From Octopus vulgaris (Eukaryota), in the NCBI GenBank assembly GCA_951406725.2, contig OX597820.1:7998001-8062000 (forward strand): a stretch of DNA of 64,000 nt. The letters run 5' to 3'. Made by a program: the position numbers and the translations under genes. Every line of letters begins with the position of its first letter. Position 1 is the stretch's first letter. The notes under the pieces were generated by a model. That model searched no databases and had not been told where the DNA came from. It saw only the letters and a list, made by a program, of their open reading frames with translations. This document shows, one piece after another, positions 4,047 through 64,000 of the stretch.

Positions 4047-4253
4047 ACGTCGCGTGTGTACCGTTGGCGATTTTTTTCCCTCCGTCTTCCCTTCCTTGGA
4101 TCTTTCCTTTTCCTATGTTTCTGACGAAGAGCTCCGCTCGAAACGTTAAATCCTCCTTCTTTCTTTCCTTTCCTGAGCGTCCAATAACACTATACTTGTT
4201 CCACGTCCTCGCGTGGTTGTGTTTTCTCTTTGTGTTTTCATGTTTGGATTAAC
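4047..4253 (+). mobile_element. Short hammerhead-bearing module in (TA)n, family H1 (Penelope pLTR/retrozyme-like)
   Basis: ~205 bp; close second copy at 47156-47362; both flanked by (TA)n; contains a hammerhead core. Confidence 0.7.
4117..4151 (+). ncRNA. Minimal type-I hammerhead ribozyme motif
   Basis: GUUU-CUGACGA-A-GAGC(UCC)GCUC-GAAA-CGU-U-AAAU: intact core, extra A after A9, 4-bp stem II, palindromic ACGU stem III. Confidence 0.65.
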
Positions 4254-6742: not shown

Positions 6743-8037
6743 TTGGTTTGGCAACTAAGTTCCCGCCGTTTTTTTTTTGGGGGGGGGGGAGTATTACGTT
6801 TTTAAATTTTGGAATCTATTTTTTTCGAGAATTCTATTTTTGAATCATTTTGGAATCTGTTTTGTTCTTTTTTGTTTTTTTTCTTTCGAGTTAATTTTTG
6901 TTTATTTTCAGATCATTAAAATGGAATGTCAAGTTAAGAAAAACGAGCATTTTCGACTCCTCCTTGTTTTTGCTTTTAATCAAGGTTCTAAAGCTGATCG
7001 CGACATTTGTGCTGTGTATGGAAAGGTTGCCATAGCTGAAAGAACTGCTCGTGATTGGTATGCCAAGTTGAAAAATGGAAATTTTGACCTCAAAGACGCA
7101 CCTCGTTCTGGCCGTCCAGTTGAGTTCGATGAAGAGCGATTAAACCAACTTTTGCACGAAAATTCTCGTCAGACGACGAGGAAACAGGCAGAGAAAATGG
7201 AATGCTCCCACACTACTATAGAGAAGCATCTTCACTCGATGGGAAAGGTTCAGAAGTATGGAGCATGGGTTCCGCATGCTTTAAGTGTCAACAACAAAAA
7301 TCAACGAGCCACAATCTCCGCTGGTTTGCTTGCTCGTCACCGCTTAACTCATGGACACAAACAAAGATTTCTTTACCGAATCGCTACTGGCGACAAAAAA
7401 TGGTGCCTGTACATCAATATGAAGCAGCGTAAGGAATTACTTAGTCCCGGTAAACAAGCGACACCACGCGTGAAACAAGATTTTCATCCACGTAAAACGA
7501 TGTTGTGCGTATGGTGGAACTGGGAAGGGATTATCCATTACGAATTGCTTGAACGGAACCAAACGCTCAACACAGAACCCTATGTTCAACAAATGGAACG
7601 ACTTAACATGGCTATTAAAGAGAAAAGACCTAATCGTCAGCATGGAGTTCTTCTGTTACACGACAACGCCCGCCATCGCATCGCCAATATGACCAAGGAG
7701 CCATTTAAACGCATGGTTAGGAAGTGCTGATACACCCGCCGTACTCTCCTGATTTGGCACCAACGGATTTCCACCTCATTCGATCTCTTTCAAATGCTAT
7801 GCGCGGAGTTTCGTTCAATACTGATGCAGAATTGAGAGATTGGTTGGATCATTTTTTCCAATCGAAATCGGGTGATTTCTACCAACGAGGTATTGAAAAT
7901 CTTGTTGAACGTTGGGAAGAAGCTGTAAAAAACAAGGGTGAATACATAATTGATTAATTAGTTGCCATTTTTTATTAAACCTTTTTTAAAAAATTTTAAT
8001 TTTTAAAAAAACGGCGGGAACTTAGTTGCCAACCTAA
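6743..8037 (+). mobile_element. Full-length mariner transposon (1295 bp)
   Basis: ~33-bp TIRs (ttggtttggcaactaagttcccgccgttttttt / aaaaaaacggcgggaacttagttgccaacctaa) flanked by TA at 6741-6742 and 8038-8039. Confidence 0.95.
6921..7957 (+). pseudogene. Mariner DD34D transposase with one frameshift near 7700
   Basis: MECQVKK... HTH region, PRSGRP, WVPHAL, TGDKKW, HDNAR, then HPPYSPDLAPTDFHL in another frame; stop at 7957. Confidence 0.93.
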
Positions 8038-14989: not shown

Positions 14990-15990
14990 TTTTTTTTTTC
15001 TTCTTTCAAATTTGCCTCCATTTCTTGCCGAGTGTCTTCCCGACTCCTAGGGCAAAGAAACTCATAGTATACATTGGTAGGCCATTAAACCAAACTCAAT
15101 AGTTCGTTCATTTTTTTTCATTTTTTTTTTTAAGTTAAATTAAAATACATGAGCAGCAACAGTTCTCACATCGACAATGCTCTTCTCAATACGTGTGATG
15201 TACCAGTTAAGACAATCTTTTGCACTTCTTGCAGGGATGGTAAGCCAGGGATCATTCTCATATAATTTTCGGTTCCCTTCTTGATCATTCCTAGTGCTCC
15301 TACGATCACTGGTATTGTAACCGCCTTGAGATGCCACATTTTATCAATTTCAATGAGTAGGTCTTTATATTTTCTGAGCTTGTCAAACTCTTTCGCTGAG
15401 ATATTATGATCACAGGGGATGCTCATGTCGATCAATAAGCAAACTTTATTGTTTTGATCTTTCACAACAATATCTGGTTTATTGGCCTTGATGGTTCGGT
15501 CTGTATGTACTGGAAAGTCCCACAGAATGGTTACATTTTCTCCTTCAGTTACAGCCTCAGGGTGGTGATTATACCACTTGTCGGCAGTTTTGATATTGTA
15601 ATGCCGACTTATTAGCCAGTGTAGATATTGGCCAACTCTGTCATGTCTTAATTTATACTCCACTGGTGCTAAGACGTTACATCCAGAGATTAGGTGGTCC
15701 ACTGTTTCAATCATGTCGTTGCAGAATCGGCATTTTGGGTCTGCTCCATTTTTCATCACATTCGCCTGGTAGTTCCGGGTTAATAGGCTTTGATCTTGAG
15801 CAGCCAGGATGAAACCTTCGCTCTCTGCTTTTAGCCCTGAGCTCCGTAGCCACTGATGGGTTTGCTTCTGGTCAACATCAGCTTGTTTGCTGCGGGCCAC
15901 ATATTTGCCGTGCAGAGGTTTCTCCTCCCACCTATCAGCCAATTGCTCGTGCGCTTTTTTGGTTGCCATTATTTTCACCTTCTTTGCAAC
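14990..15990 (-). mobile_element. 5'-truncated RLE-type non-LTR retrotransposon (R4/Dong-like), copy 1
   Basis: Open 270-aa frame 15166-15978: CRFC..H..SGC zinc knuckle, RHD, KPDIV, EFDKLRKY restriction-like endonuclease; A-rich 3' end; both ends in (TAA)n. Confidence 0.9.
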
Positions 15991-15992
15991 AA

Positions 15993-16050
<58 letters not shown>

Positions 16051-16068
16051 GTTATTATTATTATTATT

Positions 16069-17782
16069 CAGTAGTTTTATTTTTATAGCGTGTTTTCACT
16101 TCACTGCCGAGCGCAGCTGTGTGCCTTGGGTATGTGCTGTGATTTGTTGCGATGCTCTGATGGTTATTGTATGGAAAGTGTTCTGCGTAGGATGTGTGCA
16201 GTGCCTAGTAGTGCAATTTTCTGTATGTTATATGTGTTTGTAAGTCCTGGTGTCTTTGTTATGTATTTGTCTGAATATTTTTTTTATCATGCCTAATACA
16301 CCTACTATGATAGGAATTGTTTCTGGTTTTAGATTCCACATTCTGGTTACCTCTATTTCCAGGTCTTTGTATTTTGAGAGTTTCTCCATTTCTTTTAGAG
16401 ACACGTTGTCATCTGCCGGTATTGATACATCAATTAGAAAGCATTTTTTTCTTCATGATCTCTGACAACTATATCTGGTCTGTTGGCCTTAATTTCTCTA
16501 TCTGTGTGTATCGGCATATCCCAGAGTATGGTTGCTTTCTCGTTTTCTGTGACCTTTTCTGGTGTGTGCCTATACCATCTTTTTTCTGTTGTTATTCCAT
16601 AATGTTGGCATAGCTTCCAATGTATTTAGGTTCCAACTCTGTCATGTCTGTGAATATATTCCTTCTTAGCCAGGACTGGGCAGCTAGAGATAATATGATT
16701 TATTGTTTCTTTTCCATCTCCACATATTCTGCAGTTACTTGTAATATTTCTTTTCATTACATGTTTTTGGTAATTTCTGGTGGGGAGGCTTTGGTCTTGT
16801 GCTGCAATTAAAAATCCCTCTGTTTCTGCTTTGAGTCCTGAGCTTCTCAACCATTGCTGGGATTTTTCTTTGTCTATTTCTTTGCGTTTAGTTTAGTCCA
16901 GTATTTACCATGAAGGGGCTTTTCTTGCCATCGTTTTATCATGGTTCGTTACTGTTCTATTTTTAGTTTGGATTTCATTTGTTTTATAGCTTTTGTTGTT
17001 TCTTCATCATCTTCTTCTTCTTTGTGTTTATTAGATGGTATGATTTCTTGTTTGTATTTGTCAGCTTCCTTAAATACTGAGAACAGTTTTTTGTTTTGCT
17101 CGTGTTTTGCCGCTATTTGTATCAGTTTTCCTTCCTTCTGAAGTAGATATTTTTGCAGTCCTATGGTGGTTATTTTATAGTAGTTTTCCAGTTGTATAAG
17201 GCCTCTACCACCTTCTATACGTTGTATATATAGTCTTTCTATGTCAGATTTGGGGTGATGCATCCTAGATCCTGTCATTATTTTTCTTGTTTTTTATCTA
17301 TTTTGGTCAGTTCATTTCGTGTCCAGTTAAGGATATTGTAGCTGTAACTTATAACTGGGACAGCTAAAGTGTTAATACCTATTATCATGTTTTTAGCATT
17401 GAGCTCTGTTTTTAGTATTGATCTAACTCGTCTATAATATTCTTTCTTTAATTTATCTTTCATTTGTGTGTGTTGTGTCTTATCTAGTTCATGGATTCCT
17501 AAGTACTTGTAAGTTTGGCTTTGGTCTAATTCTTTTATTTCATTGGTTTTATCTAGTGTGATGTTGCTACTCTTAACTAGTTTTCCTCTTTTCATGGTTA
17601 CTTTGGCGCATTTTTCTAATCCAAATTTCATATCTATTTCTTTGGTAAATCCATGACCTGTCTTTAATAGTGTTTCCAGCTGTTTGTCATTTGCAGCGTA
17701 TAGTTTTAGGTCATCCATATATAAAAGGTGGCTGATCGTTTTGCCGTAACATTTATATCCGCATCCAGTTCTATTTAGTATA
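16069..17782 (-). mobile_element. 5'-truncated RLE-type non-LTR retrotransposon (R4/Dong-like), copy 2 with frameshifts
   Basis: RT motifs HLLYMDDLKLY, FGLEKC, YKYLG, GGRGL; CRIC..H..SSC, RHD; flanked by (TAA)n. Confidence 0.9.
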
Positions 17783-17783
17783 A

Positions 17784-17816
<33 letters not shown>

Positions 17817-17913
17817 GAAGAAGAAGAAGAAGAAGAAGAAGAAGAAGAAGAAGAAGAAGAAGAAGAAGAAGAAGAAGAAGAAGAAGAAGAAGAAGAAGAA
17901 GAAGAAGAAGAAT

Positions 17914-18122
17914 GCGGTGAGCTGGCAAAATCGTTAGCAAGCTGGGGGAAATGCTTTGTAGCATTTCGTCCGTCTTTATGATCTGAGTTCAAATCCTGCC
18001 GAGGTTAACTTTACCTTTCATCATTTCGGGGTCGATAAATTGAGTACCAGTTGAACACTGGGGTCGATGTGATCGACTTAGCCCTCCACTACCCCGAATT
18101 TGCTGGTCTTGTGCCAAAGAAA
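17914..18122 (+). mobile_element. SINE family B
   Basis: gcggtgagctggca head and core; follows (GAA)n 17817-17911. Confidence 0.85.
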
Positions 18123-20841: not shown

Positions 20842-20898
<57 letters not shown>

Positions 20899-20920
20899 GA
20901 GAAATCTTCAGGAAGCTCAT

Positions 20921-20971
20921 AGCTTCCTGAAGATTTCTCTTGAATGAAACAGTTCTAGTCCTGTAGAAGCT
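20921..20971 (+). ncRNA. Complete type-I hammerhead ribozyme motif (family H2)
   Basis: AGCUUC-CUGAAGA-(U)UUC ucuu GAA(U)-GAAA-CAG uucuaguc CUG-UA^-GAAGCU; 6-bp stem I; predicted cut after 20965. Confidence 0.8.
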
Positions 20972-20982
20972 CCTTCTATATA

Positions 20983-21030
<48 letters not shown>

Positions 21031-21033
<3 letters not shown>

Positions 21034-21384
21034 TATCTTTTCTGTTGTCAAAGAATATATTTCTCCAGCGTTCGCTATTTTACCCTCGTTCTGGTCTAAC
21101 GACCCTCCATGTTTGTTTGCGTTCAGTTTTCTTGTATGTTTCCACTGTCCTGTTTTTGATCCTATCTTTGACCCTCCATAGATCCCAAATTTGATTTTGG
21201 TACTTATGGGAGCAACTGTCTTCGAAGACTCATATTGTCGGTCAATGCACGAAATGAGGAGTAGACAGACAGCCGGCAACTGATGAAGGGTCGTTCTTTA
21301 TGCTACTTGTCCTGTTTTCCATTTGTTTCTCTCGTTTCATTTGCTTTCGTATCTCATGTTTACTGTTGGTGATGTCCTGTACCC

Positions 21385-21385
<1 letters not shown>
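21031..21385. mobile_element. Unclassified ~355-bp insert between (TA)n tracts
   Basis: Complex sequence bounded on both sides by long (TA)n; internal hairpin 21216-21268. Confidence 0.45.
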
Positions 21386-31299: not shown

Positions 31300-31552
31300 T
31301 TATTTATTTTATAGAAGGAGCTCCTTCTATAAAATAAATTAATTTACTCCGCTATGTATTGAGTACCTTATTTACTGTGGTTAACCCCGACTCAACCCGG
31401 GACCTACATATATATATATATACATATATACGACGGGCTTCTTTCAGTTTCCGTCTACCAAATCCACTTGCCCAAGGTACCACGCAGTGGGACTGAACCC
31501 GGAACCAAGTGGTTGGTAAGCAAGCTACTTACCATACAGCCACTCTAGCGCC
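31026..31552 (-). mobile_element. SINE family C, interrupted by an H2 fragment in its internal microsatellite
   Basis: Both halves match 14195-14612; insert at 31302-31408. Confidence 0.85.
31302..31408 (+). mobile_element. 3' part of hammerhead module H2 with inverted 5' duplication
   Basis: agctccttctata shared with 20968-20980; 38-bp perfect palindrome 31302-31339; flanked by (TA)n. Confidence 0.6.
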
Positions 31553-42393: not shown

Positions 42394-42532
42394 GACAAAC
42401 AGACAGACACATACAGTAAGGTAGGCGAAGAGAAAGGAGAGAAAGGGAGAGACATGGCAGAATGAGTTGGTGTAACCATTGGGCAGAGAATATATGTATA
42501 GGTGAGTGTATGTGTGCGTATACATACATATA

Positions 42533-42920
42533 GTGGAGACGCAATGGCCCAGTGGTTAGGGCAGCGGACTCGCGGTCATAGGATCGCGGTTTCGATTCCC
42601 AGACCGGGCGTTGTGAGTGTTTATTGAGCGAAAACACCTAAAGCTCCACGAGGCTCCGGCAGGGGATGGTGGTGATCCCTGCTGTACTCTTTCACCACAA
42701 CTTTCTCTCACTCTTACTTCCTGTTTCTGTTGTACCTGTATTTTTTCAAAGGGCCGGCCTTGTCACTCTCTGTGTCACGCTGAATATCCCCGAGAACTAC
42801 GTTCAGGGTACACGTGTCTGTGGAGTGCTCAGCCACTTACACGTTAATTTCACGAGCAGGCCGTTCCGTTGATTCGGATCAACCGGAACCCTCGTCGTCG
42901 TAACCGACGGAGTGCTTCCA
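42533..42920 (+). mobile_element. SINE family A, tail type 3
   Basis: Full head; near-identical inverted copy at 43575-43963. Confidence 0.92.
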
Positions 42921-42985
42921 TACATACATATCCATGCACACACACATATCTATACATACACATTGACTGAAGTATATGTTGTGTG

Positions 42986-43054
<69 letters not shown>

Positions 43055-43083
43055 GTATGTATATATGTATGTATATATATACG

Positions 43084-43120
<37 letters not shown>

Positions 43121-43473
43121 TATATATACATGTATATATTTGTGTGTATATGCAAACATGTGCGTGTCTGTGCGCGTGCGTGTGAATATTTGTTGATGCT
43201 CCATGCAGGAGGGGACATGGCCCAGAGTCATGGGCTTTTTCCTCGTTACATCTAGATGTCTGTAGGAGGCTGGAATGTGAAGAGGGCGATTTAGATATTT
43301 GATGAGATCAATAATCAGTGATGAGGAGGTGTAGACCCCCGAAAATATTCGATACAAACGGCACGAAGTCATGTTTCCACCTCAAAACTATAAACATATC
43401 GCCAATGGAGGTTTTGAACCATCGTCACACGTTAGTAAATACTAGTTTCTCCCCGAGAAGTGTGTGTGTGTGC

Positions 43474-43530
<57 letters not shown>

Positions 43531-43574
43531 CTGCCTCCCTCTTTTGTAAACAGTGCCGAACGTTCTTGTTAACA

Positions 43575-43963
43575 TGGATGGAAGCACTCCGTCGGTTACG
43601 ACGACGAGGGTTCCGGTTGATCCGAATCAACGGAACAGCCTGCTCGTGAAATTAACGTGTAAGTGGCTGAGCACTCCACAGACACGTGTACCCTTAACGT
43701 AGTTCTCGGGGATATTCAGCGTGACACAGAGAGTGACAAGGCCGGCCCTTTGAAATACAGGTACAACAGAAACAGGAAGAAAGAGTGAGAGAAAGTTGTG
43801 GTGAAAGAGTACAGCAGGGATCACCACCATCCCCTGCCGGAGCCTCGTGGAACTTTAGGTGTTTTCGCTCAATAAACACTTACAACGCCCGGTCTGGGAA
43901 TCGAAACCGCGATCCTATGACCGCGAGTCCGCTGCCCTAACCACTGGGCCATTGCGCCTCCAC
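43575..43963 (-). mobile_element. SINE family A, tail type 3, with 11-bp TSD
   Basis: tcttgttaaca 43564-43574 / tcttgctaaca 43964-43974. Confidence 0.92.
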
Positions 43964-44050
43964 TCTTGCTAACATACACTCAGAACCAATCTAAAAACAG
44001 ATTCAAAACAGAATATACCCAAACGCATAAACATTGTTTTTTTTTTTTTT

Positions 44051-46788: not shown

Positions 46789-46960
46789 GAGATTTACAGA
46801 AAAACAAAAGACGAAGACAGGTTTATGAACTGGAAGCAGGTGTATTAGTTTGACCTTCGGGAAAGTGAGAAAGGCGTTTACGTTTCGAGCCTACGCTCTT
46901 CAGCAGAGAGGAATAAGAGTCAATAAACAGAGAGAATTTTTTTAAAAAACTTGTGGATCT
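46786..46960 (-). mobile_element. Module H4, second copy
   Basis: Minus: CUGCUGA-A-GAGC(GUAG)GCUC-GAAA-CGUA at 46875-46910; 3' end abuts (TA)n. Confidence 0.65.
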
Positions 46961-47415: not shown

Positions 47416-47759
47416 GGCAAAATGTCTGTCTGTGTGTGTGTCCTTTATACAAATCCACAATTTTTCAGTTAGAGGGCTCGCACTTTCTATGGTCATTCAA
47501 AACCGTCCAATGGTGGTCGTGCACATCTTTACATTTCCCCAGTCACCCGGCAAAGCCATTAAAAAATCGATAAAAGTGACTTTTTTGTGAATTTTCTATC
47601 CAAAACCCAATCAAAATGCCCGAAACTTGAATGCCAGTTAGCTGTATGTGATTGGTCGGAAATTTGGACAGTACTCGCGTGTATGTGTATGTGCGCACGC
47701 ACGCAGCTGTATATGCATTACTAGCACTATGACCCGGCGTTGCTGTGTCATAGTGCTAG
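47405..47759 (+). mobile_element. Non-autonomous Helitron-like element
   Basis: 5' tatataaacggca...tgtctg shared with the 49146-49527 element; 3' hairpin ending in CTAG followed by T. Confidence 0.65.
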
Positions 47760-47764
47760 TATAA

Positions 47765-50789: not shown

Positions 50790-53700
50790 GTAGGGGGGAA
50801 GGAGACGAAGGAATATTGAACATTCCAGAGAGGGTTATTTGAGAGGTGAATTTTCCAGGGGGGGATGGATTTGAAGGTGAAGGAGAGGAAGGGGAATAAG
50901 GAATATTGAACATTCCAGAGAGGGGGATTTGAGAGGTGAACATTCCAGGGAGGGGGATTTGAAGATGAAGGGGGAAGGGGAGGAAGAGATATTGAACATT
51001 CCAGAGAGGGGGATTTGAAGGTAAAGGGGAGGAAGGAATATTACACATTCCAGAGAAGGGCATTTGAAGTTGAAGGAAAGGAAGGGGAGGAAGGAATATT
51101 AAACATAACAGAGAGGGGGATTTGGAGGTAAAGGAGAGGAAGGGGAGGAAGAAATGTTGAACATTCCAGAGAGGGGGATTTGAAGGTGAAGGGGAGGAAG
51201 GGGAGGAAGAAATGTTGAACATTCCAGAGAGGGGGATTTGAAGGTGAAGGGGAGGAAGGGGAGGAAGGAATATTAAACATTCCAGAGAGGGGGATTTGGA
51301 GGTGAAGGAGAGAAAGGGGAGGAAAGAATATTGAACATTCCAGAGAGGGAGATTTGAAGGTGAAGGGAACGAAAAGAAAGAAGAAATGTTGAACATTCCA
51401 GAGAGGGCGATTTGAAGGAGAAGGGGAGGAAGGGGAGGAAGAAATGTTGAACATTCCAGAGAGGGGGATTTGAAGGTGAAGGGGAGGAAGGGGAGGAAGG
51501 AATATTAAACATTCCAGAGAGGGGGATTTGAGGTGAAGGAGAGGAAGGTGAGGAAGGAATATTGAACATTCCAGAGGGGGATTTGAAGGTGAAGGGGAGG
51601 AAGGGGAGGAAGGAATATTAAACATTCCAGAGAGGGGGATTTGAGGTGGAAGGAATATTGAACATTCCAGAGAGGGGGATTTGAAGGTGAAGGTGAGGAA
51701 GGGGAGGAAGGAATATTGAACATTCCAGAGAGGGGGATTTGAGGGTGAAGAGGAGGAAGGGATGGAAGGAATATTGAACATTCCAGAGAGGGGGATTTGA
51801 AGGTGAAGGGGAGGAAGGGGAGGAAGGAATATTAAACATTCCAGAGAGGGGGATTTGAAGGTGAAGAGGAGGAAGGGTTGGAAGGAATATTGAACATTCC
51901 AGAGAGGGGGATTTGAAGGTGAAGGGGAGGAAGGGATGGAAGGAATATTGAACATTCCAGAGAGGGGGATTTGAAGGTGAAGGGGAGGAAGGGATGGAAG
52001 GAATATTGAACATTCCAGAGAGGGGGATTTGAAGGTGAAGGGGAGGAAGGGATGGAAGGAATATTGAACATTCCAGAGAGGGGGATTTGAAGGTTAAGGG
52101 GAGGAAGGGATGGAAGGAATATTGAACATTCCAGAGAGGGGGATTTGAAGGTGAAGGGGAGGAAGGGATGGAAGGAATATTGAACATTCCAGAGAGGGGG
52201 ATTTGAAGGTGAAGGGGAGGAAGGGGAAGGGAATGGAAGGAATATTGAAAATTCCAGAGAGGGGGATTTGAAGGTGAAGGGGAGGAAGGGATGGAAGGAA
52301 TATTGAACATTCCAGAGAGGGGGATTTGAAGGTGAAGGGGAGGAAGGGATGGAAGGAATATTAAACATTCCAGAGAGGGGGATTTGAAGGTGAAGGGGAG
52401 GAAGGGGAGGAAGGAATATTGAACATTCCAGAGAGGGGGATTTGAAGGTGAAGGGGAGGAAGGGATGGAAGGAATATTGAACATTCCAGAGAGGGGGATT
52501 TGAAGGTGAAGGGGAGGAAGGGATGGAAGGAATATTGAACATTCCAGAGAGGGGGATTTGAAGGTGAATGGGAGGAAGGGGGTAAGAAATATTAAACATT
52601 CCAGAGAGGGGGATTTGAAGGTGAAGGGGAGGAAGGGATGGAAGGAATATTAAACATTCCAGAGAGGGGGATTTGAAGGTGAATGGGAAGAAGGGGGGAA
52701 GAAATATTAAACATAACAGAGAGGGGGATTTGAAGGTGAAGGGGAGGAAGGGATGGAAGGAATATTGAACATTCCAGAGAGGGGGATTTGAAGGTGAAGG
52801 GGAGGAAGGGATGGAAGGAATATTGAACATTCCAGAGAGGGGGATTTGAAGGTGAAGGGGGAGGAAGGGATGGAAGGAATATTAAACATTCCAGAGAGGG
52901 GGATTTGAAGGTGAAGGGGAGGAAGGGGAAGAAGGAATATTAAACATTCCAGAGAGGGGGATTTGAAGGTGAAGGGGAGAGTAAGGAATGGAAGGAATAT
53001 TGAACATTCCAGAGAGGGGGATTTGAAGGTGAAGGGGAGGAAGGGATGGAAGGAATATTAAACATTCCAGAGAGGGGGATTTGAAGGTGAAGGAGGAAGG
53101 GATGGAAGGAATATTGAACATTCCAGAGAGGGGGATTTGAAGGTGAAGGGGAGGAAAGGATGGTAGGAATATTGAACATTCCAGAGAGGGGGATTTGAGG
53201 GTGAAGGGGAGGAAGGGATGGAAGGAATATTGAACATTCCAGTGAGGGGGATTTGAAGGTGAAGGGGAGGAAGGGGAGGAAGGAATATTGAACATTCCAG
53301 AGAGGGGGATTTGAAGGTGAAGGGGAGGAAGGGATGGAAGGAATATTAAACATTCCAGAGAGGGGGATTTGAAGGTGAAGGGAAGGAAGGGATGGAAGGA
53401 ATATTGAACATTCCAGAGAGGGGGATTTGAAGGTGAAGGGGAGGAAGGGATGGAAGGAATATTGAACATTCCAGAGAGGGGGATTTGAAGGTGAAGGGGA
53501 GGAAGGAATGGTAGGAATATTGAACATTCCAGAGAGGGGGATTTGAGGGTGAAGGGGAGGAAGGGATGGAAGGAATATTGAACATTCCAGAGAGGGGGAT
53601 TTGAAGGTGAAGGGGAGGAAGGGATGGAAGGAATATTGAACATTCCAGAGAGGGGGATTTGAAGGTGAAGGGGAGGAGGAAGGAATGGAAGGAATATTAA

Positions 53701-56700
53701 ACATTCCAGAGAGGGGGATTTGAAGGTGAATGGGAAGAAGGGATGGAAGGAATATTGAACATTCCAGAGAGGGGGATTTGAAGGTGAAGGGGAGGAAGGG
53801 ATGGAAGGAATATTGAACATTCCAGAGAGGGGGATTTGAAGGTGAAGGGGAGGAAGGGGAGGAGGGAATATTGAACATTCCAGAGAGGGGGATTTGAAGG
53901 TGAAGGGGAGGAAGGAATGGAAGGAATATTAAACATTCCAGAGAGGGGGATTTGAAGGTGAATGGGAAGAAGGGATGGAAGGAATATTGAACATTCCAGA
54001 GAGGGTGATTTGAAGGTGAAGGGGAGGAAGGAATGGAAGGAATATTGAACATTCCAGAGAGGGGGATTTGAAGGTGAATGGGAAGAAGGGATGGAAGGAA
54101 TATTGAACATTCCAGAGAGGGGGATTTGAGGGTGAAGAGGAGGAAGGGATGGAAGGAATATTGAACATTCCAGAGAGGGGGATTTGAAGGTGAAGGGGAG
54201 GAAGGGATGAAAGGAATATTGAACATTCCAGAGAGGGGGATTTGAAGGTGAAGGGGAGGAAGGAATGGAAGGAATATTGAACATTCCAGAGAGGGGGATT
54301 TGAAGGTGAAGGGGAGGAAGGGATGGAAGGAATATTGAACATTCCAGAGAGGGTGATTTGAAGGTGAAGGGGAGGAAGGGGAGGAAGGAATATTGAACAT
54401 TCCAGAGAGGGGGATTTGAAGGTGAAGGGAGGAAGGGATGGAAGGAATATTGAACATTCCAGAGAGGGGGATTTGAAGGTGAAGGGGAGGAAGGGGGGAA
54501 GAAATATTAAACATTCCAGAGAGGGGATTTGAAGGTGAAGGGGAGGAAGGGATGGAAGGAATATTGAACATTCCAGAGAGGGGGATTTGAAGGTGAAGGG
54601 GAGGAAGGATGGAAGGAATATTGAACATTCCAGAGTGGGGATTTGAAGGTGAAGGAGGAAGGGATGGAAGGAATATTAAACATTCCAGAGAGGGGGATTT
54701 GAAGGTGAAGGGGAGGAAGGGATGGAAGGAATATTAAACATTCCAGAGAGGGGGATTTGAAGGTGAAGAGGAGGAAGGGATGGAAGGAATATTGAACATT
54801 CCAGAGAGGGGGATTTGAAGGTGAAGGGGGGGAAGGGGAAGATGGAATATTAAACATTCCAGAGAGGGGGATTTGAAGGTGAAGGGGAGGAAGGAATGGA
54901 AGGAATATTGAACATTCCAGAGAGGGGGATTTGAAGGTGAAGGGGAGGAAGGGATGGAAGGAATATTAAACATTCCAGTGAGGGGGATTTGAAGGTGAAG
55001 GGGAGGAAGGAATGGAAGGAATATTAAACATTCCAGAGAGGGGGATTTGAAGATGAATGGGAAGAAGGGATGGAAGGAATATTGAACATTCCAGAGAGGG
55101 GGATTTGAAGATGAAGGGAGGAAGGGATGGAAGGAATATTAAACATTCCAGAGTGGGGGATTTGAAGGTGAAGGAGAGTAAGGGATGGAAGGAATATGAA
55201 ACATTCCAGAGAGGGGGATTTGAAGGTGAAGGGGAGGAAGGGATGGAAGGAATATTGAATATTCCAGAGAGGGGGATTTGAAGGTGAAGGGGAGGAAGGG
55301 ATGGAAGGAATATTTAACATTCCAGAGAGGGGGATTTGAAGATGAAGGGAGGAAGGGGATGGAAGGAATATTGAACATTCCAGAGAGGGGGATTTGAAGG
55401 TGAAGGGGAGGAAGGGATGGAAGTAATATTAAACATTCCAGTGAGGGGGATTTGAAGGTGAAGGGGAGGAAGGGATGGAAGGAATATTAAACATTCCAGA
55501 GAGGGGGATTTGAAGGTGAAGGGGAGGAAGGGGAGGAAGGAATATTGAACATTCCAGAGAGGGGTTTTGAAGGTGAAGGGGAGGAAGGGATGGAAGGAAT
55601 ATTAAACATTCCAGAGAGGGGGATTTGAAGGTGAAGGGGAGGAAGGGATGGAAGGAATATTGAACATTCCAGAGAGGGGGATTTGAAGGTGAAGGGAGGA
55701 AGGAATGGAAGGAATATTGAACATTCCAGAGAGGGGGATTTGAAGGTGAAGGGGAGGAAGGGATGGAAGGAATATTGAACATTCCAGAGAGGGGGATTTG
55801 AAGGTGAAGGAGAGGAAGGGGAGGAAGGAATATTGAACATTCCAGAGAGGGGGATTTGAAGGTGAAGGGGAGGAAGGAATGGAAGGAATATTAAACATTC
55901 CAGAGAGGGGGATTTGAAGGTGAAGGGGAGGAAGTGATAGAAGAAATATTGAACATTCCAGAGAGGGGGATTTGAAGGTGAAGGGAGGAAGGGATGGAAG
56001 GAATATTGAACATTCCAGAGAGGGGGATTTGAAGGTGAAGGGGAGGAAAGGGAGGAAGGAATATTGAACATTCCAGAGAGGGGGATTTGAAGGTGAAGGG
56101 GAGGAAGGAATGGAAGGAATATTAAACATTCCAGAGAGGGGGATTTGAAGGTGAAGGGAGGAAGGGGATGGAAGGAATATTGAACATTCCAGAGAGGGGG
56201 ATTTGAAGGTGAAGGGGATGAAGGAATGGAAGGAATATTAAACATTCCAGAGAGGGGGATTTAAAGGTGAATGGGAAGAAGGGATGGAAGGAATATTGAA
56301 CATTCCAGAGAGGGGGATTTGAGGGTGAAGAGGAGGAAGGGATGCAAGGAATATTGAACATTCCAGAGAGGGGGATTTGAAGGTGAATGGGAAGAAGGGG
56401 GGAAGAAATATTAAACATTCCAGAGAGGGGGATTTGGAGGTGAAGGGGAGGAAGGGATGGAAGGAATATTGAACATTCCAGAGAGGGGGATTTGAAGGTG
56501 AAGGGGAGGAAGGAATGGAAGGAATATTGAACATTCCAGAGAGGGGGATTTGAAGGTGAAGGGGAGGAAGGAATGGAAGGAATATTGAACATTCCAGTGA
56601 GGGGGATTTGAAGGTGAAGGGGAGGAAGGATGGAAGGAATATTGAACATTCCAGAGAGGGGGATTTGAAGGTAAGGGAGGGAGAAGGATGGAAGGAATAT

Positions 56701-59700
56701 TAAACATTCCAGAGAGGGGGATTTGAAGGTGAAGGGAGGAAGGGATGGAAGGAATATTGAACATTCCAGAGAGGGGGATTTGAAGGTGAAGGGGATGAAG
56801 GTATGGAAGAATATTAACATTCCAGAGAGGGGGATTTGAAGGTGAATGGGAGGAAGGGATGGAAGGAATATTGAACATTCCAGAGAGGGGGATTTGAAGG
56901 TGAAGGGGAGGAAGGGAGGAAGGAATATTAAACATTCCAGAGAGTGGGATTTGAAGGTGATGAGGAGGAAGGGATGGAAGGAATATTGAACATTCCAGAG
57001 AGGGGGATTTGAAGGTGAAGGGGAGGAAGGGGAGGAAGGAATATTAAACATTCCAGAGAGGGGGATTTGAAGGTGAAGGGAGGAAGGAATGGAAGGAATA
57101 TTAAACATTCCAGAGAGGGGGATTTGAAGGTGAATTTGGAGGAAAGGATGGAAGGAATATTAAACATTCCAGAGAGGGGGATTTGAAGGTGAAGGGGAGG
57201 AAGTGATGGAAGGAATATTAAACATTCCAGAGAGGGGGATTTGAAGGTGAAGGAGAGTAAGGGATGGAAGGAATATTGAACATTCCAGAGAGGGGGATTT
57301 GAAGGTGAAGGGGAGGAAGGGATGGAAGGAATATTAAACATTCCAGAGAGGGGGATTTGAAGGTGAAGGAGAGTAAGGGATGGAAGGAATATTGAACATT
57401 CCAGAGAGGGGGATTTGAAGGTGAAGGGGAGGAAGGAATGGTAGGAAAATTGAACATTCCAAAGAGGGGGATTTCAGGGTGAAGACGAGGAAGGGATGGA
57501 AGGAATATTGAACATTCCAGAGAGGGGGATTTGAAGGTGAAGGGGAGGAAGGGGAGGAAGAAATATTGAACATTCCATAGAGGGGGATTTGAAGGTGAAG
57601 GGGAGGAAGGAATGAAAGGAATATTAAACATTCCAGAAAGGGGGATTTGAAGGTGAATGGGAGGAAGGGATGGAAGGAATAGTAAACATTCCAGAGAGGG
57701 GGATTTGAAGATGAAGGGGAGGAAGGGATGGAAGGAATATTAAACATTCCAGAGAGGGGGATTTGAAGGTGAAGGAGAGTAAGGGATGGAAGGAATATTA
57801 AACATTCCAGAGAGGGGGATTTGAAGGTGAAGGGGAGGAAGAGATGGAAGAAATATTGAACATTCCAGAGAGGGGGATTTGAAGGTGAAGGGGAGGAAGG
57901 GATGGAAGGAATATTGAACATTCCAGAGAGGGGGATTTAAAGGTGAAGGGGAGGAAGGAATGGAAGGAATATTGAACATTCCAGAGAGGGGGATTTGAAG
58001 GTGAAGGGGAGGAAGGGATGGAAGGAATATTGAACATACCAGAGAGGGGGATTTGAGGGTGAATAGGAGGAAGGGATGCAAGGAATATTGAACATTCCAG
58101 AGAGGGGGATTTGAAGGTGAAGGGGAGGAAGGGATGGAAGGAATATTAAACATTCCAGAGAGGGGGATTTGAAGGTGAAGGGGAGGAAGGGATGGAAGGA
58201 ATATTGAACATTCCAGAGAGGGGGATTTGAAGGTGAAGGGGAGGAAGGGATGGAAGGAATATTGAACATTCCAGAGAGGGGGATTTGAAGGTGAAGGGGA
58301 GGAAGGGATGGAAGGAATATTGAACATTCCAGAGAGGGGGATTTGAAGGTGAAGGGGAGGAAGGGATGGAAGGAATATTAAACATTCCAGAGAGGGGGAT
58401 TTGAAGGTGAAGGGAGGAAGGGATGGAAGGAATATTGAACATTCCAGAGAGGGGGATTTGAAGGTGAAGGGGAGGAAGGGATGGAAGGAATATTGAACAT
58501 TCCAGAGAGGGGGATTTGAAGGTGAAGGGGAGGAAGGGATGGAAGGAATATTGAACATTCCAGAGAGGGGGATTTGAAGGTGAAGGGGAGGAAGGGATGG
58601 AAGGAATATTGAACATTCCAGAGAGGGGGATTTGAAGGTGAAGGGAGGAAGGGATGGAAGGAATATTGAACATTCCAGAGAGGGGGATTTGAAGGTGAAG
58701 GGGAGGAAGGGATGGAAGGAATATTGAACATTCCAGAGAGGGGGATTTGAAGGTGAAGGGGAGGAAGGGATGGAAGGAATATTGAACATTCCAGAGAGGG
58801 GGATTTGAAGGTGAAGGGGAGGAAGGGATGGAAGGAATATTAAACATTCCAGAGAGGGGGATTTGAAGGTGAAGGGAGGAAGGGATGGAAGGAATATTGA
58901 ACATTCCAGAGAGGGGATTTGAAGGTGAAGGGAGGAAGGGATGGAAGGAATATTAAACATTCCAGAGAGGGGGATTTGAAGGTGAAGGGGAGGAAGGGAT
59001 GGAAGGAATATTAAACATTCCAGAGAGGGGGATTTGAAGGTGAAGGGGAGGAAGGGATGGAAGGAATATTAAACATTCCAGAGAGGGGGATTTGAAGGTG
59101 AAGGGGAGGAAGGGATGGAAGGAATATTAAACATTCCAGAGAGGGGGATTTGAAGGTGAAGGGAGGAAGGGATGGAAGGAATATTAAACATTCCAGAGAG
59201 GGGGATTTGAAGGTGTAGGGGAGGAAGGGATGGAAGGAATATTAAACATTCCAGAGAGGGGGATTTGAAGGTGAAGGGGAGGAAGGGATGGAAGGAATAT
59301 TAAACATTCCAGAGAGGGGGATTTGAAGGTGAAGGGGAGGAAGGGATGGAAGGAATATTGAACATTCCAGAGAGGGGGATTTGAAGGTGAAGGGGAGGAA
59401 GGGAAGGAATATTAAACATTCCAGAGAGGGGGATTTGAGGGTGAAGAGGAGGAAGGGATGCAAGGAATATTAAACATTCCAGAGAGGGGGATTTGAAGGT
59501 GAAGGGGAGGAAGGGATGGAAGGAATATTGAACATTCCAGAGAGGGGGATTTGAAGGTGAAGGGGAGGAAGGGATGGAAGGAATATTAAACATTCCAGAG
59601 AGGGGGATTTGAAGGTGAAGGGGAGGAAGGGATGGAAGGAATATTAAACATTCCAGAGAGGGGGATTTGAAGGTGAAGGGAGGAAGGGATGGAAGGAATA

Positions 59701-62700
59701 TTAAACATTCCAGAGAGGGGGATTTGAAGGTGAAGGGGAGGAAGGGATGGAAGGAATATTGAACATTCCAGAGGGGGATTTGAAGGTGAAGGGGAGGAAG
59801 GGATGGAAGGAATATTAAACATTCCAGAGAGGGGGATTTGAAGGTGAAGGGAGGAAGGGATGGAAGGAATATTGAACATTCCAGAGAGGGGGATTTGAAG
59901 GTGAAGGGGAGGAAGGGATGGAAGGAATATTAAACATTCCAGAGAGGGGGATTTGAAGGTGAAGGGGAGGAAGGGATGGAAGGAATATTAAACATTCCAG
60001 AGAGGGGGATTTGAAGGTGAAGGGGAGGAAGGGATGGAAGGAATATTAAACATTCCAGAGAGGGGGATTTGAAGGTGAAGGGGAGGAAGGGATGGAAGGA
60101 AAATTAAACATTCCAGAGAGGGGGATTTGAAGGTGAAGGGGAGGAAGGGATGGAAGGAATATTAAACATTCCAGAGAGGGGGATTTGAAGGTGAAGGGAG
60201 GAAGGGATGGAAGGAATATTGAACATTCCAGAGAGGGGGATTTGAAGGTGAAGGGAGGAAGGGATGGAAGGAATATTAAACATTCCAGAGAGGGGGATTT
60301 GAAGGTGAAGGGGAGGAAGGGATGGAAGGAATATTAAACATTCCAGAGAGGGGGATTTGAAGGTGAATGGGAGGAAGGGATGGAAGGAATATTGAACATT
60401 CCAGAGAGGGGGATTTGAAGGTGAAGGGGAGGAAGGGATGGAAGGAATATTGAACATTCCAGAGAGGGGGATTTGAAGGTGAAGAGGAAGTGAAGGAGGA
60501 AGGGATGGAAGGAATATTAAACATTCCAGAGAGGGGGATTTGAAGGTGAAGGGGAGGAAGGGATGGAAGGAATATTAAACATTCCAGAGAGGGGGATTTG
60601 AAGGTGAAGGGGAGGAAGGGATGGAAGGAATATTAAACATTCCAGAGAGGGGGATTTGAAGGTGAAGGGGAGGAAGGGATGGAAGGAATATTAAACATTC
60701 CAGAGAGGGGGATTTGAAGGTGAAGGGGAGGAAGGGATGGAAGGAATATTGAACATTCCAGAGAGGGGGATTTGAAGGTGAAGGGAGGAAGGGATGGAAG
60801 GAATATTGAACATTCCAGAGAGGGGGATTTGAAGGTGAAGGGGAGGAAGGGATGGAAGGAATATTGAACATTCCAGAGAGGGGGATTTGAAGGTGAAGGG
60901 GAGGAAGGGATGGAAGGAATATTGAACATTCCAGAGGGGGATTTGAAGGTGAAGGGGAGGAAGGGATGGAAGGAATATTGAACATTCCAGAGAGGGGGAT
61001 TTGAAGGTGAAGGAGGAAGGGATGGAAGGAATATTGAACATTCCAGAGAGGGGGATTTGAAGGTGAAGGGAGGAAGGGATGGAAGGAATATTGAACATTC
61101 CAGAGAGGGGGATTTGAAGGTGAAGGGGAGGAAGGGATGGAAGGAATATTGAACATTCCAGAGAGGGGGATTTGAAGGTGAAGGGGAGGAAGGGATGGAA
61201 GGAATATTGAACATTCCAGAGAGGGGGATTTGAAGGTGAAGGGGAGGAAGGGATGGAAGGAATATTGAACATTCCAGAGAGGGGGATTTGAAGGTGAAGG
61301 GGAGGAAGGGATGGAAGGAATATTGAACATTCCAGAGAGGGGGATTTGAAGGTGAAGGGGAGGAAGGGATGGAAGGAATATTTAACATTCCAGAGAGGGG
61401 GATTTGAAGGTGAAGGGGAGGAAGGGGATGGAAGGAATATTAAACATTCCAGAGAGGGGGATTTGAAGGTGAAGGGGAGGAAGGGATGGAAGGAATATTA
61501 AACATTCCAGAGAGGGGGATTTGAAGGTGAAGGGGAGGAAGGGATGGAAGGAATATTGAACATTCCAAAGAGGGGGATTTGAAGGTGAAGGGGAGGAAGG
61601 GATGGAAGGAATATTGAACATTCCAGAGAGGGGGATTTGAAGGTGAAGGGGAGGAAGGGATGGAAGGAATATTAAACATTCCAGAGAGGGGGATTTGAAG
61701 GTGAAGGGAGGAAGGGATGGAAGGAATATTAAACATTCCAGAGAGGGGGATTTGAAGGTGAAGGGGAGGAAGGGATGGAAGGAATATTAAACATTCCAGA
61801 GAGGGGGATTTAGAAGGTGAAGGGGGGAGGAAGGGATGGAAGGAATATTAAACATTCCAGAGAGGGGGATTTGAAGGTGAAGGGGAGGAAGGGATGGAAG
61901 GAATATTAAACATTCCAGAGAGGGGGATTTGAAGGTGAAGGGGAGGAAGGGATGGAAGGAATATTGAACATTCCAGAGAGGGGGATTTGAAGGTGAAGGG
62001 GAGGAAGGATGGAAGGAATATTGAACATTCCAGAGGGGGATTTGAAGGTGAGGGAGGAAGGGATGGAAGGAATATTGAACATTCCAGAGAGGGGGATTTG
62101 AAGGTGAAGGGAGGAAGGGATGGAAGGAATATTAAACATTCCAGAGAGGGGGATTTGAAGGTGAAGGGAGGAAGGGGATGGAAGGAATATTAAACATTCC
62201 AGAGAGGGGGATTTGAAGGTGAAGGGAGGAAGGGATGGAAGGAATATTAAACATTCCAGAGAGGGGGATTTGAAGGTGAAGGGAGGAAGGGATGGAAGGA
62301 ATATTGAACATTCCAGAGAGGGGGATTTGAAGGTGAAGGGGAGGAAGGGATGGAAGGAATATTAAACATTCCAGAGAGGGGGATTTGAAGGTGAAGGGGA
62401 GGAAGGATGGAAGGAATATTAAACATTCCAGAGAGGGGGATTTGAAGGTGAAGGGGAGGAAGGGATGGAAGGAATATTGAACATTCCAGAGAGGGGGATT
62501 TGAAGGTGAAGGGGAGGAAGGGATGGAAGGAATATTGAACATTCCAGAGAGGGGATTTGAAGGTGAAGGGGAGGAAGGGATGGAAGGAATATTAAACATT
62601 CCAGAGAGGGGATTTGAAGGTGAAGGGAGGAAGGGATGGAAGGAATATTGAACATTCCAGAGAGGGGGATTTGAAGGTGAAGGGAGGAAGGGATGGAAGG

Positions 62701-64000
62701 AATATTGAACATTCCAGAGAGGGGGATTTGAAGGTGAAGGGGAGGAAGGGATGGAAGGAATATTAAACATTCCAGAGAGGGGGATTTGAAGGTGAAGGGA
62801 GGAAGGGATGGAAGGAATATTGAACATTCCAGAGAGGGGGATTTGAAGGTGAAGGGGAGGAAGGGATGGAAGGAATATTAAACATTCCAGAGAGGGGGAT
62901 TTGAAGGTGAAGGGGAGGAAGGGATGGAAGGAATATTGAACATTCCAGAGAGGGGGATTTGAAGGTGAAGGGGAGGAAGGGATGGAAGGAATATTGAACA
63001 TTCCAGAGAGGGGGATTTGAAGGTGAAGGGAGGAAGGGATGGAAGGAATATTGAACATTCCAGAGAGGGGGATTTGAAGGTGAAGGGGAGGAAGGGGATG
63101 GAAGGAATATTAAACATTCCAGAGAGGGGGATTTGAAGGTGAAGGGGAGGAAGGGATGGAAGGAATATTAAACATTCCAGAGAGGGGGATTTGAAGGTGA
63201 AGGGGAGGAAGGGATGGAAGGAATATTAAACATTCCAGAGAGGGGGATTTGAAGGTGAAGGGGAGGAAGGGATGGAAGGAATATTGAACATTCCAGAGAG
63301 GGGGATTTGAAGGTGAAGGGGAGGAAGGGATGGAAGGAATATTAAACATTCCAGAGAGGGGGATTTGAAGGTGAAGGGAGGAAGGGATGGAAGGAATATT
63401 AAACATTCCAGAGAGGGGGATTTGAAGGTGAAGGGGAGGAAGGGATGGAAGGAATATTGAACATTCCAGAGAGGGGGATTTGAAGGTGAAGGGAGGAAGG
63501 GATGGAAGGAATATTGAACATTCCAGAGAGGGGGATTTGAAGGTGAAGGGAGGAAGGGATGGAAGGAATATTGAACATTCCAGAGAGGGGGATTTGAAGG
63601 TGAAGGGGAGGAAGGGGATGGAAGGAATATTAAACATTCCAGAGAGGGGGATTTGAAGGTGAAGGGGAGGAAGGGATGGAAGGAATATTAAACATTCCAG
63701 AGAGGGGGATTTGAAGGTGAAGGGGAGGAAGGGATGGAAGGAATATTAAACATTCCAGAGAGGGGGATTTGAAGGTGAAGGGGAGGAAGGGATGGAAGGA
63801 ATATTGAACATTCCAGAGAGGGGGATTTGAAGGTGAAGGGGAGGAAGGGATGGAAGGAATATTAAACATTCCAGAGGGGGATTTGAAGGTGAAGGGGAGG
63901 AAGGGATGGAAGGAATATTAAACATTCCAGAGAGGGGGATTTGAAGGTGAAGGGGAGGAAGGGATGGAAGGAATATTAAACATTCCAGAGAGGGGGATTT
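50790..64000. repeat. 58-bp tandem satellite, >13 kb (~225 units), continuing beyond the window
   Basis: Consensus aacattccagagagggggatttgaaggtgaaggggaggaagggatggaaggaatatt(g/a). Confidence 0.99.

Follow-up and report, generated by a model that had tools for sequence, protein, structure and literature searches.

A 5′-truncated, folded-back copy of a hammerhead-bearing repeat, likely Penelope-like, between (TA)n arrays of Octopus vulgaris DNA

The 93-bp element piece at 20893-20985 of the window, which is the whole stretch of 64,000 nucleotides analyzed here (Octopus vulgaris assembly GCA_951406725.2, contig OX597820.1, positions 7,998,001 to 8,062,000 of the forward strand), is most likely a routine 5′-truncated, folded-back insertion of Penelope type. 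The full account, to which we assign a probability of roughly 0.75, is that the piece is a 5′-truncated copy of a high-copy hammerhead repeat, likely the end-repeat of a Penelope-like element (PLE), and that its cDNA end folded back at AGCT during insertion. The window is rich in microsatellites and pieces of mobile elements, and the piece is flanked by (TA)n arrays at 20854-20893 and 20989-21030, neither of which has a strand. The left array is the probable insertion target and has the letters AT in common with the outer end of the inverted arm; because both flanks are (TA)n, a target-site duplication is unreadable. From left to right, the piece is composed of an inverted arm on the minus strand (20893-20917), which copies the 5′ strand of stem I, the core and helix II, and lacks GAAA, stem III and the cleavage site; a 3-nt junction on the plus strand (20918-20920); a type I hammerhead motif on the plus strand (20921-20971), with predicted cleavage after 20965; and the short 3′ end of the element, also on the plus strand (20972-20985).

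An earlier note on this DNA, made from the letters alone, had described a perfect 25-bp antisense copy with the 3-nt loop CAT, and this description is exact: 20893-20917 and 20921-20945 are reverse complements in 25/25 bp, with no further Watson-Crick pairs when the arms are extended. Such a hairpin has a chance expectation of about 5e-9 in 64 kb, and the arm-bearing fold has a z score of -9.0, equaled by 0/200 shuffles. A miRNA reading of the hairpin was rejected, because the Rfam miRNA matches all lie below the gathering score and are typical of any long hairpin or TA repeat. Two further inverted repeats occur in the window, namely a perfect 15-bp repeat with a 13-nt loop that is not of low complexity (47719-47761), and an inverted pair (42532-43964) whose members, each about 400 bp, are separated by 650 nt and are 98% complementary, which resembles a dispersed repeat present twice in opposite orientation.

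The hammerhead motif possesses a complete type I core (CUGANGA, GAAA, A15.1-U16.1 and a UH cleavage site), surrounded by three helices of 6, 3 and 4 bp, of which helix I is open. As the earlier note had stated in calling the motif canonical, stem I (20921-20926/20966-20971, 6 bp), CUGAAGA (20927-20933), GAAA (20946-20949), stem III (20949-20952/20961-20964, 4 bp, with a near-palindromic loop) and GUA (20963-20965) are all present. The word canonical does not extend, however, to helix II, in which 3 bp (20935-20937/20942-20944) are closed by U.U (20934/20945) and the G10.1-C11.1 pair, described as highly conserved at the base of this helix in hammerheads (PMC4209133), although it is not universal, is missing, or to the Rfam hammerhead models, which gave 0 matches at the gathering score and do not appear in the 53 obtained at E up to 10. 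With a strict hammerhead descriptor, 20921-20971 is the sole match in the window, and 0/200 dinucleotide shuffles match; the bare core pattern is common there (33 matches versus a mean of 10.5 by chance). Decay of this particular copy as the origin of the U.U is unsupported, because U.U is the majority form among the family contigs, with no other letter at 3% or more. A literature search for U10.1 hammerhead variants returned 0 papers; precedent for a basal U.U is provided by HHR_Amex2 of the axolotl, for which weak cleavage alone and better cleavage as a dimer are reported (PMC7229834).

Without the arm, the hammerhead folds no better than shuffles (z 0.14). The monomeric hammerhead fold is predicted at -7.3 kcal/mol, which is 1.2 above the minimum of -8.5, and its share of the monomer ensemble is 0.019, or 0.5% once the element's own downstream hairpin is included, these shares being rough because nearest-neighbour models ignore core and tertiary contacts; an 8-bp hairpin possible at 20962-20980 would compete with stem I. 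The near-palindromic stem III region allows two copies to pair over 12/16 bases (-12.8 kcal/mol). The two-strand minimum lies at -27.2 kcal/mol, compared with -24.8 for the exact double hammerhead and -17.2 for two monomers, and contains helices I and III of the double hammerhead, with the core mispaired as in the monomer. Helix I would be longer with the native flank, which bears on a loop 1-loop 2 tertiary contact and which has been replaced in the 20893-20985 copy. Taken as folding predictions, these energies suggest that the motif probably works as a dimer-assisted hammerhead. Two other hammerhead-like motifs are present in the window, each in a short repeat between TA runs. The one at 4106-4160 (plus strand) is a minimal type I motif of another family, with the core, an extra A, a G-C-closed 4-bp helix II and a palindromic short stem III, and no inverted arm was found at it; the other, at 46871-46915 (minus strand), is a minimal motif whose best reading has one core change.

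Other copies of the family were surveyed with 20886-20992 as the reference, at 80% likeness, in three public contig runs from 3 organisms and 2 studies, which contained 4808 (in the 76% of the run that was read), 423 and 584 family contigs. No alternative letter reaches 3% at any position among these contigs, in a listing that may omit variants close to the termini of short contigs; the copy at 20893-20985, including its hammerhead, carries the majority sequence and is therefore probably young. The earlier note had proposed surveying other copies for inverted 5′ arms and their breakpoints, and such arms do recur, at or near the same place, in 3/3 runs. A form in which 7 letters are absent at 20914 occurs in 7, 3 and 3 contigs, at depths of 43602, 1670 and 2171, or 1.3%, 0.12% and 0.24% of the peak, a tenfold spread in a summed contig depth that is no copy number. 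Like most fold-backs of other family copies, the 7-letter form is perfectly palindromic on AGCT; in further forms 5, 8, 9, 10 or 11 letters are absent. One contig of run X4 folds back inside stem III, and at least one X1 contig joins (TA)n without inversion.

The contigs also indicate what the arm has displaced. A different flank, shared by at least 30 X1 and at least 12 X2 contigs, stands before 20919-20920 and is the native upstream sequence that the arm replaces in the 20893-20985 copy. The junction at 20918-20920 was delimited from contig loose ends before 20919 and 20920; position 20920 (in some copies also 20919) agrees with the native family flank, and the other 1-2 nt do not. The native upstream consensus before 20920 has one frame open for 10 codons with a stop at 20920-20922, as at the end of an ORF, a length too short to count as evidence. 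Loose ends before 20921 occur in at least 23 further X1 contigs, and their consensus (agreement 0.68) equals the arm in 13 of the last 14 letters. Among the 24 pieces listed of 5870, 10 begin at 20893 with 0 other letters, and all of these continue for 2-8 letters unlike the flank in the window, so that the short outer end of the arm is special to the window copy. None of the same 24 pieces listed of 5870 crosses the CAT loop ungapped; junction contigs carry fewer than 31 letters on the arm side, under the 31-letter bridging threshold. On the 3′ side, family copies depart from the window at 20985 in at least 37, 16 and 25 contigs and at 20987 in at least 11, 2 and 5, beyond which they run either into (TA)n or into a tail, giving two types of 3′ end. 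Exact-pattern scans for relatives yielded 0 in metagenome contigs (two patterns) and 0 in viral contigs. No RNA run figured among the datasets listed as containing the sequence, and 0 reads aligned in the roughly 6% covered of RNA run X22, which derives from a different organism than the runs richest in the family, a result without bearing on expression.

A second copy of the family within the window bears the same marks of insertion. Its perfect palindrome, with 19-bp arms and no strand (31302-31339), is centered on the AGCT of the 3′ strand of stem I, at the equivalent of 20969/20970 and 4 nt past the cleavage site, and is accompanied on the forward side only by a 71-nt tail on the plus strand (31337-31407), followed by (TA)n. 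The X1 loose-end consensus behind 20985 matches this tail in register over the 10 letters at each end. Both family copies in the window (2/2) are fold-backs and lie in (TA)n, which makes up 3.6% of 1-50800.

An adjacent inverted 5′-truncated copy, a palindromic junction, a one-sided tail and a (TA)n target, all of which are found here, are features of PLE insertion. Penelope-like insertions are described as having an inverted 5′-truncated copy, a one-sided tail and a (TA)n bias (PMC8557442), palindromes at their inverted junctions have been interpreted as self-priming (PMC3846280), and hammerheads occur in pLTRs of PLEs (PMC4209133). The statement in the earlier note that Penelope insertions often carry an inverted partial pLTR at the 5′ end agrees with these accounts (PMC3846280; PMC8557442). 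The hammerhead motif, which in PLEs lies near the 3′ end of the terminal repeat, is here followed by 14-16 nt up to the 3′ boundary of the family at 20985-20987. Membership among PLEs falls short of proof, because the ORF for a telomerase-like RT and GIY-YIG endonuclease that full PLE copies carry could not be linked to the family: Pfam gave nothing in a reading frame across 20893-20985, and no RT/GIY-YIG domain specific to PLEs in the 8 ORFs scanned of the 59 in the window. Remnants of other mobile elements in the window include a broken non-LTR retrotransposon at 15166-17988 (minus strand), with an RT piece (PF00078) and a zf-RVT piece broken up by trinucleotide runs, and a mariner-type transposase remnant at 6759-7730 (plus strand; PF01359, PF17906). 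A separate repeat-like segment between TA runs, right of the piece at 21030-21385, has CUGAUGA without a matching GAAA and no second copy in the window, and is possibly another decayed element end. From 50900 to 64000 the window consists of a satellite of 58-bp units, with more than 200 copies and an extreme strand skew (GC skew about 0.78), which continues past the window end.

Formation of the folded-back copy probably resembles insertion of the anole element, which starts at two internal sites bounding its tail and cuts AT-rich DNA (PMC11167929). By analogy, the element protein would nick the AT-rich target and prime reverse transcription at the short 3′ boundary, which is itself observed. 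The copy is seen to end at 20919-20920, immediately beyond stem I, and there the native flank gives way to the arm; reverse transcription would have halted at this point. At the self-complementary AGCT the cDNA end, with 1-2 untemplated bases, may have primed itself and copied 25 nt, or a second cDNA may have been joined to it head to head. Finally, the new strand would join the left (TA)n array through the AT microhomology, unless a longer arm was made and later trimmed.

The arm could also have been made by host break repair, in which a break or a stalled cDNA end folds back on a microhomology, is briefly extended and is closed by end joining. Breaks in yeast are reported to yield templated inverted duplications mostly of 5-34 bp (PMC11724301), a range that 25 bp fits, and the arm terminates within the element at an AT microhomology, with 1-2 non-native bases at the junction. 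This origin is nevertheless unlikely, because random breaks in old copies would not produce a recurrent position and a one-sided tail, whereas fold-backs are seen repeatedly at one family position in the three runs, and in 2/2 window copies, the second of which has such a tail. Repair that acts on the cDNA end while the element inserts is indistinguishable from cDNA fold-back, the preferred reading, and could account for its last steps.

It is still less probable that the family is a non-autonomous non-LTR retrozyme, that is, a short hammerhead repeat in tandem that depends on a PLE for its movement, and that the piece is a broken monomer. The 6-bp stem I, the short helix II with its basal U.U and the predicted dimer fold do resemble HHR_Amex2 (PMC7229834), retrozymes have been proposed to be PLE derivatives (10.64898/2026.07.22.740005), and no ORF was found. 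Against these points, both window copies are single stubs without tandem units of 170-400 nt, and both show the inverted junctions typical of PLE integration; a retrozyme origin would alter the label of the family, not the mechanism of the scar.

The hairpin and hammerhead folds exclude each other, as the earlier note had claimed and as fold computation confirms. In the presence of the arm the hairpin fold reaches -42.8 kcal/mol and the predicted probability of the hammerhead is 2.5e-24, versus 0.019 without the arm; the gap between the two folds exceeds 30 kcal/mol, leaving no second state. The arm is thus predicted to block self-cleavage in cis, irreversibly, and since it is transcribed before the ribozyme, the block would be kinetic as well: in a read-through RNA the arm would be made first and the enzyme half locked for good. 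A reversible, riboswitch-like role was rejected on these energy grounds, the arm being a lock without means of release. The predicted block covers the enzyme half alone, and the 3′ half with the cleavage site should stay free for cleavage in trans by normal family RNA. Between a blocked and a normal RNA, helices I and III are expected from the fold prediction to form in trans, with a minimum of -60.8 kcal/mol, and the exact trans hammerhead lies at -59.6, compared with -51.4 for the two RNAs apart.

The earlier note had interpreted the arm as a fold-back scar that also silences the ribozyme. The scar is upheld by the replaced flank and the recurrent fold-backs, and the block in cis by prediction; a silencing role finds no support, because the copy is a 93-bp stub in (TA)n, the block has no off-switch and the 3′ half is usable in trans. 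Silencing is most likely a by-product of insertion, and for the anole element cleavage by the ribozyme is described as dispensable for insertion in vitro (PMC11167929). Self-complementary 4-mers occur in the ribozyme as AGCT in each strand of stem I and as CTAG in stem III; that these set the fold-back sites, and that blocked copies damp the family as trans-cleavable decoys or small-RNA sources, is a speculation to which we give little credence.

Selection for the arm, either as an antisense off-switch or as a hairpin maintained to supply small RNAs that act against the family, is very improbable, even though the folds are mutually exclusive, the arms are 25/25 identical and Penelope copies are reported to give antisense small RNAs in a rotifer (PMC3846280). 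An energy gap of this size offers no second state to switch to, the junctions differ among copies, perfect arms with majority letters fit a young insertion, and no compensatory change or conserved ortholog speaks for selection. A library or assembly chimera at a short palindrome is hardly credible either: chimeras formed by fold-back are a familiar artefact of library preparation, the CAT junction itself does not occur among the 24 pieces listed of 5870 and both flanks are (TA)n, but related junctions occur in 3 runs from 3 organisms and 2 studies at depths up to 43602, and the window contains two fold-backs of the family that differ from each other and have ends resembling those of insertions.

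As a single locus the piece carries little weight, being one of very many dead stubs. A natural hammerhead under the control of an antisense lock would be truly interesting, but what is seen here argues for an accident. How PLEs form head-to-head junctions is still an open question according to the available accounts (PMC8557442; PMC11167929), and a young, very abundant family with junctions at three short palindromes inside its ribozyme is a pointer to it: counting junctions across the genome might distinguish self-priming from the joining of two cDNAs and from host repair. A literature search revealed no paper on this family or on an arm that blocks a PLE hammerhead, and repeat libraries may already catalogue the family.

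Inverted truncated copies, palindromic junctions, one-sided tails and (TA)n bias have all already been published for PLEs. The closest counterparts are Pen2, Pen2a and Pen3a of Adineta vaga (PMC3846280; scheme in PMC8557442), which, as described there, share with the window copies the head-to-head inverted 5′ copy, the palindrome at the junction, the AT-rich or (TA)n target, the microhomology joint and, in the case of the second window copy, the one-sided tail. Unlike these elements, the window piece is 93 bp in length and without an ORF, and the outer end of its arm lies inside the hammerhead and not at a pLTR end; typical PLE inverted copies, as published, extend to the 3′ end of the element, whereas this arm ends internally. 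The 71-nt tail of the second copy is longer than the published PLE tails of 30-40.

With the type I hammerheads of PLE pLTRs, as described in PMC4209133, the window motif has in common the topology, the full core, the palindromic stem III region, the predicted dimer fold and the occurrence mostly as single dispersed copies, and differs in having a real 4-bp stem III and a 6-bp stem I. Three features of the minimal metazoan motifs in that account are absent from it, namely the G10.1-C11.1 pair, an additional base following position 9 and a long helix II (PMC4209133). HHR_Amex2 has the same U.U at the base of helix II and is reported to cleave weakly as a monomer (22% in 1 h) and to do better as a dimer (PMC7229834), behavior that is also predicted for the window motif; it is found in 350-bp tandem repeats expressed as circles, whereas the window motif is a lone stub with a longer stem III. 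Finally, the fold-back inverted duplications described at yeast breaks (PMC11724301) are similar in their short templated inverted copy and end microhomology, whereas the fold-back in the window belongs to a mobile family and to one set position within it.
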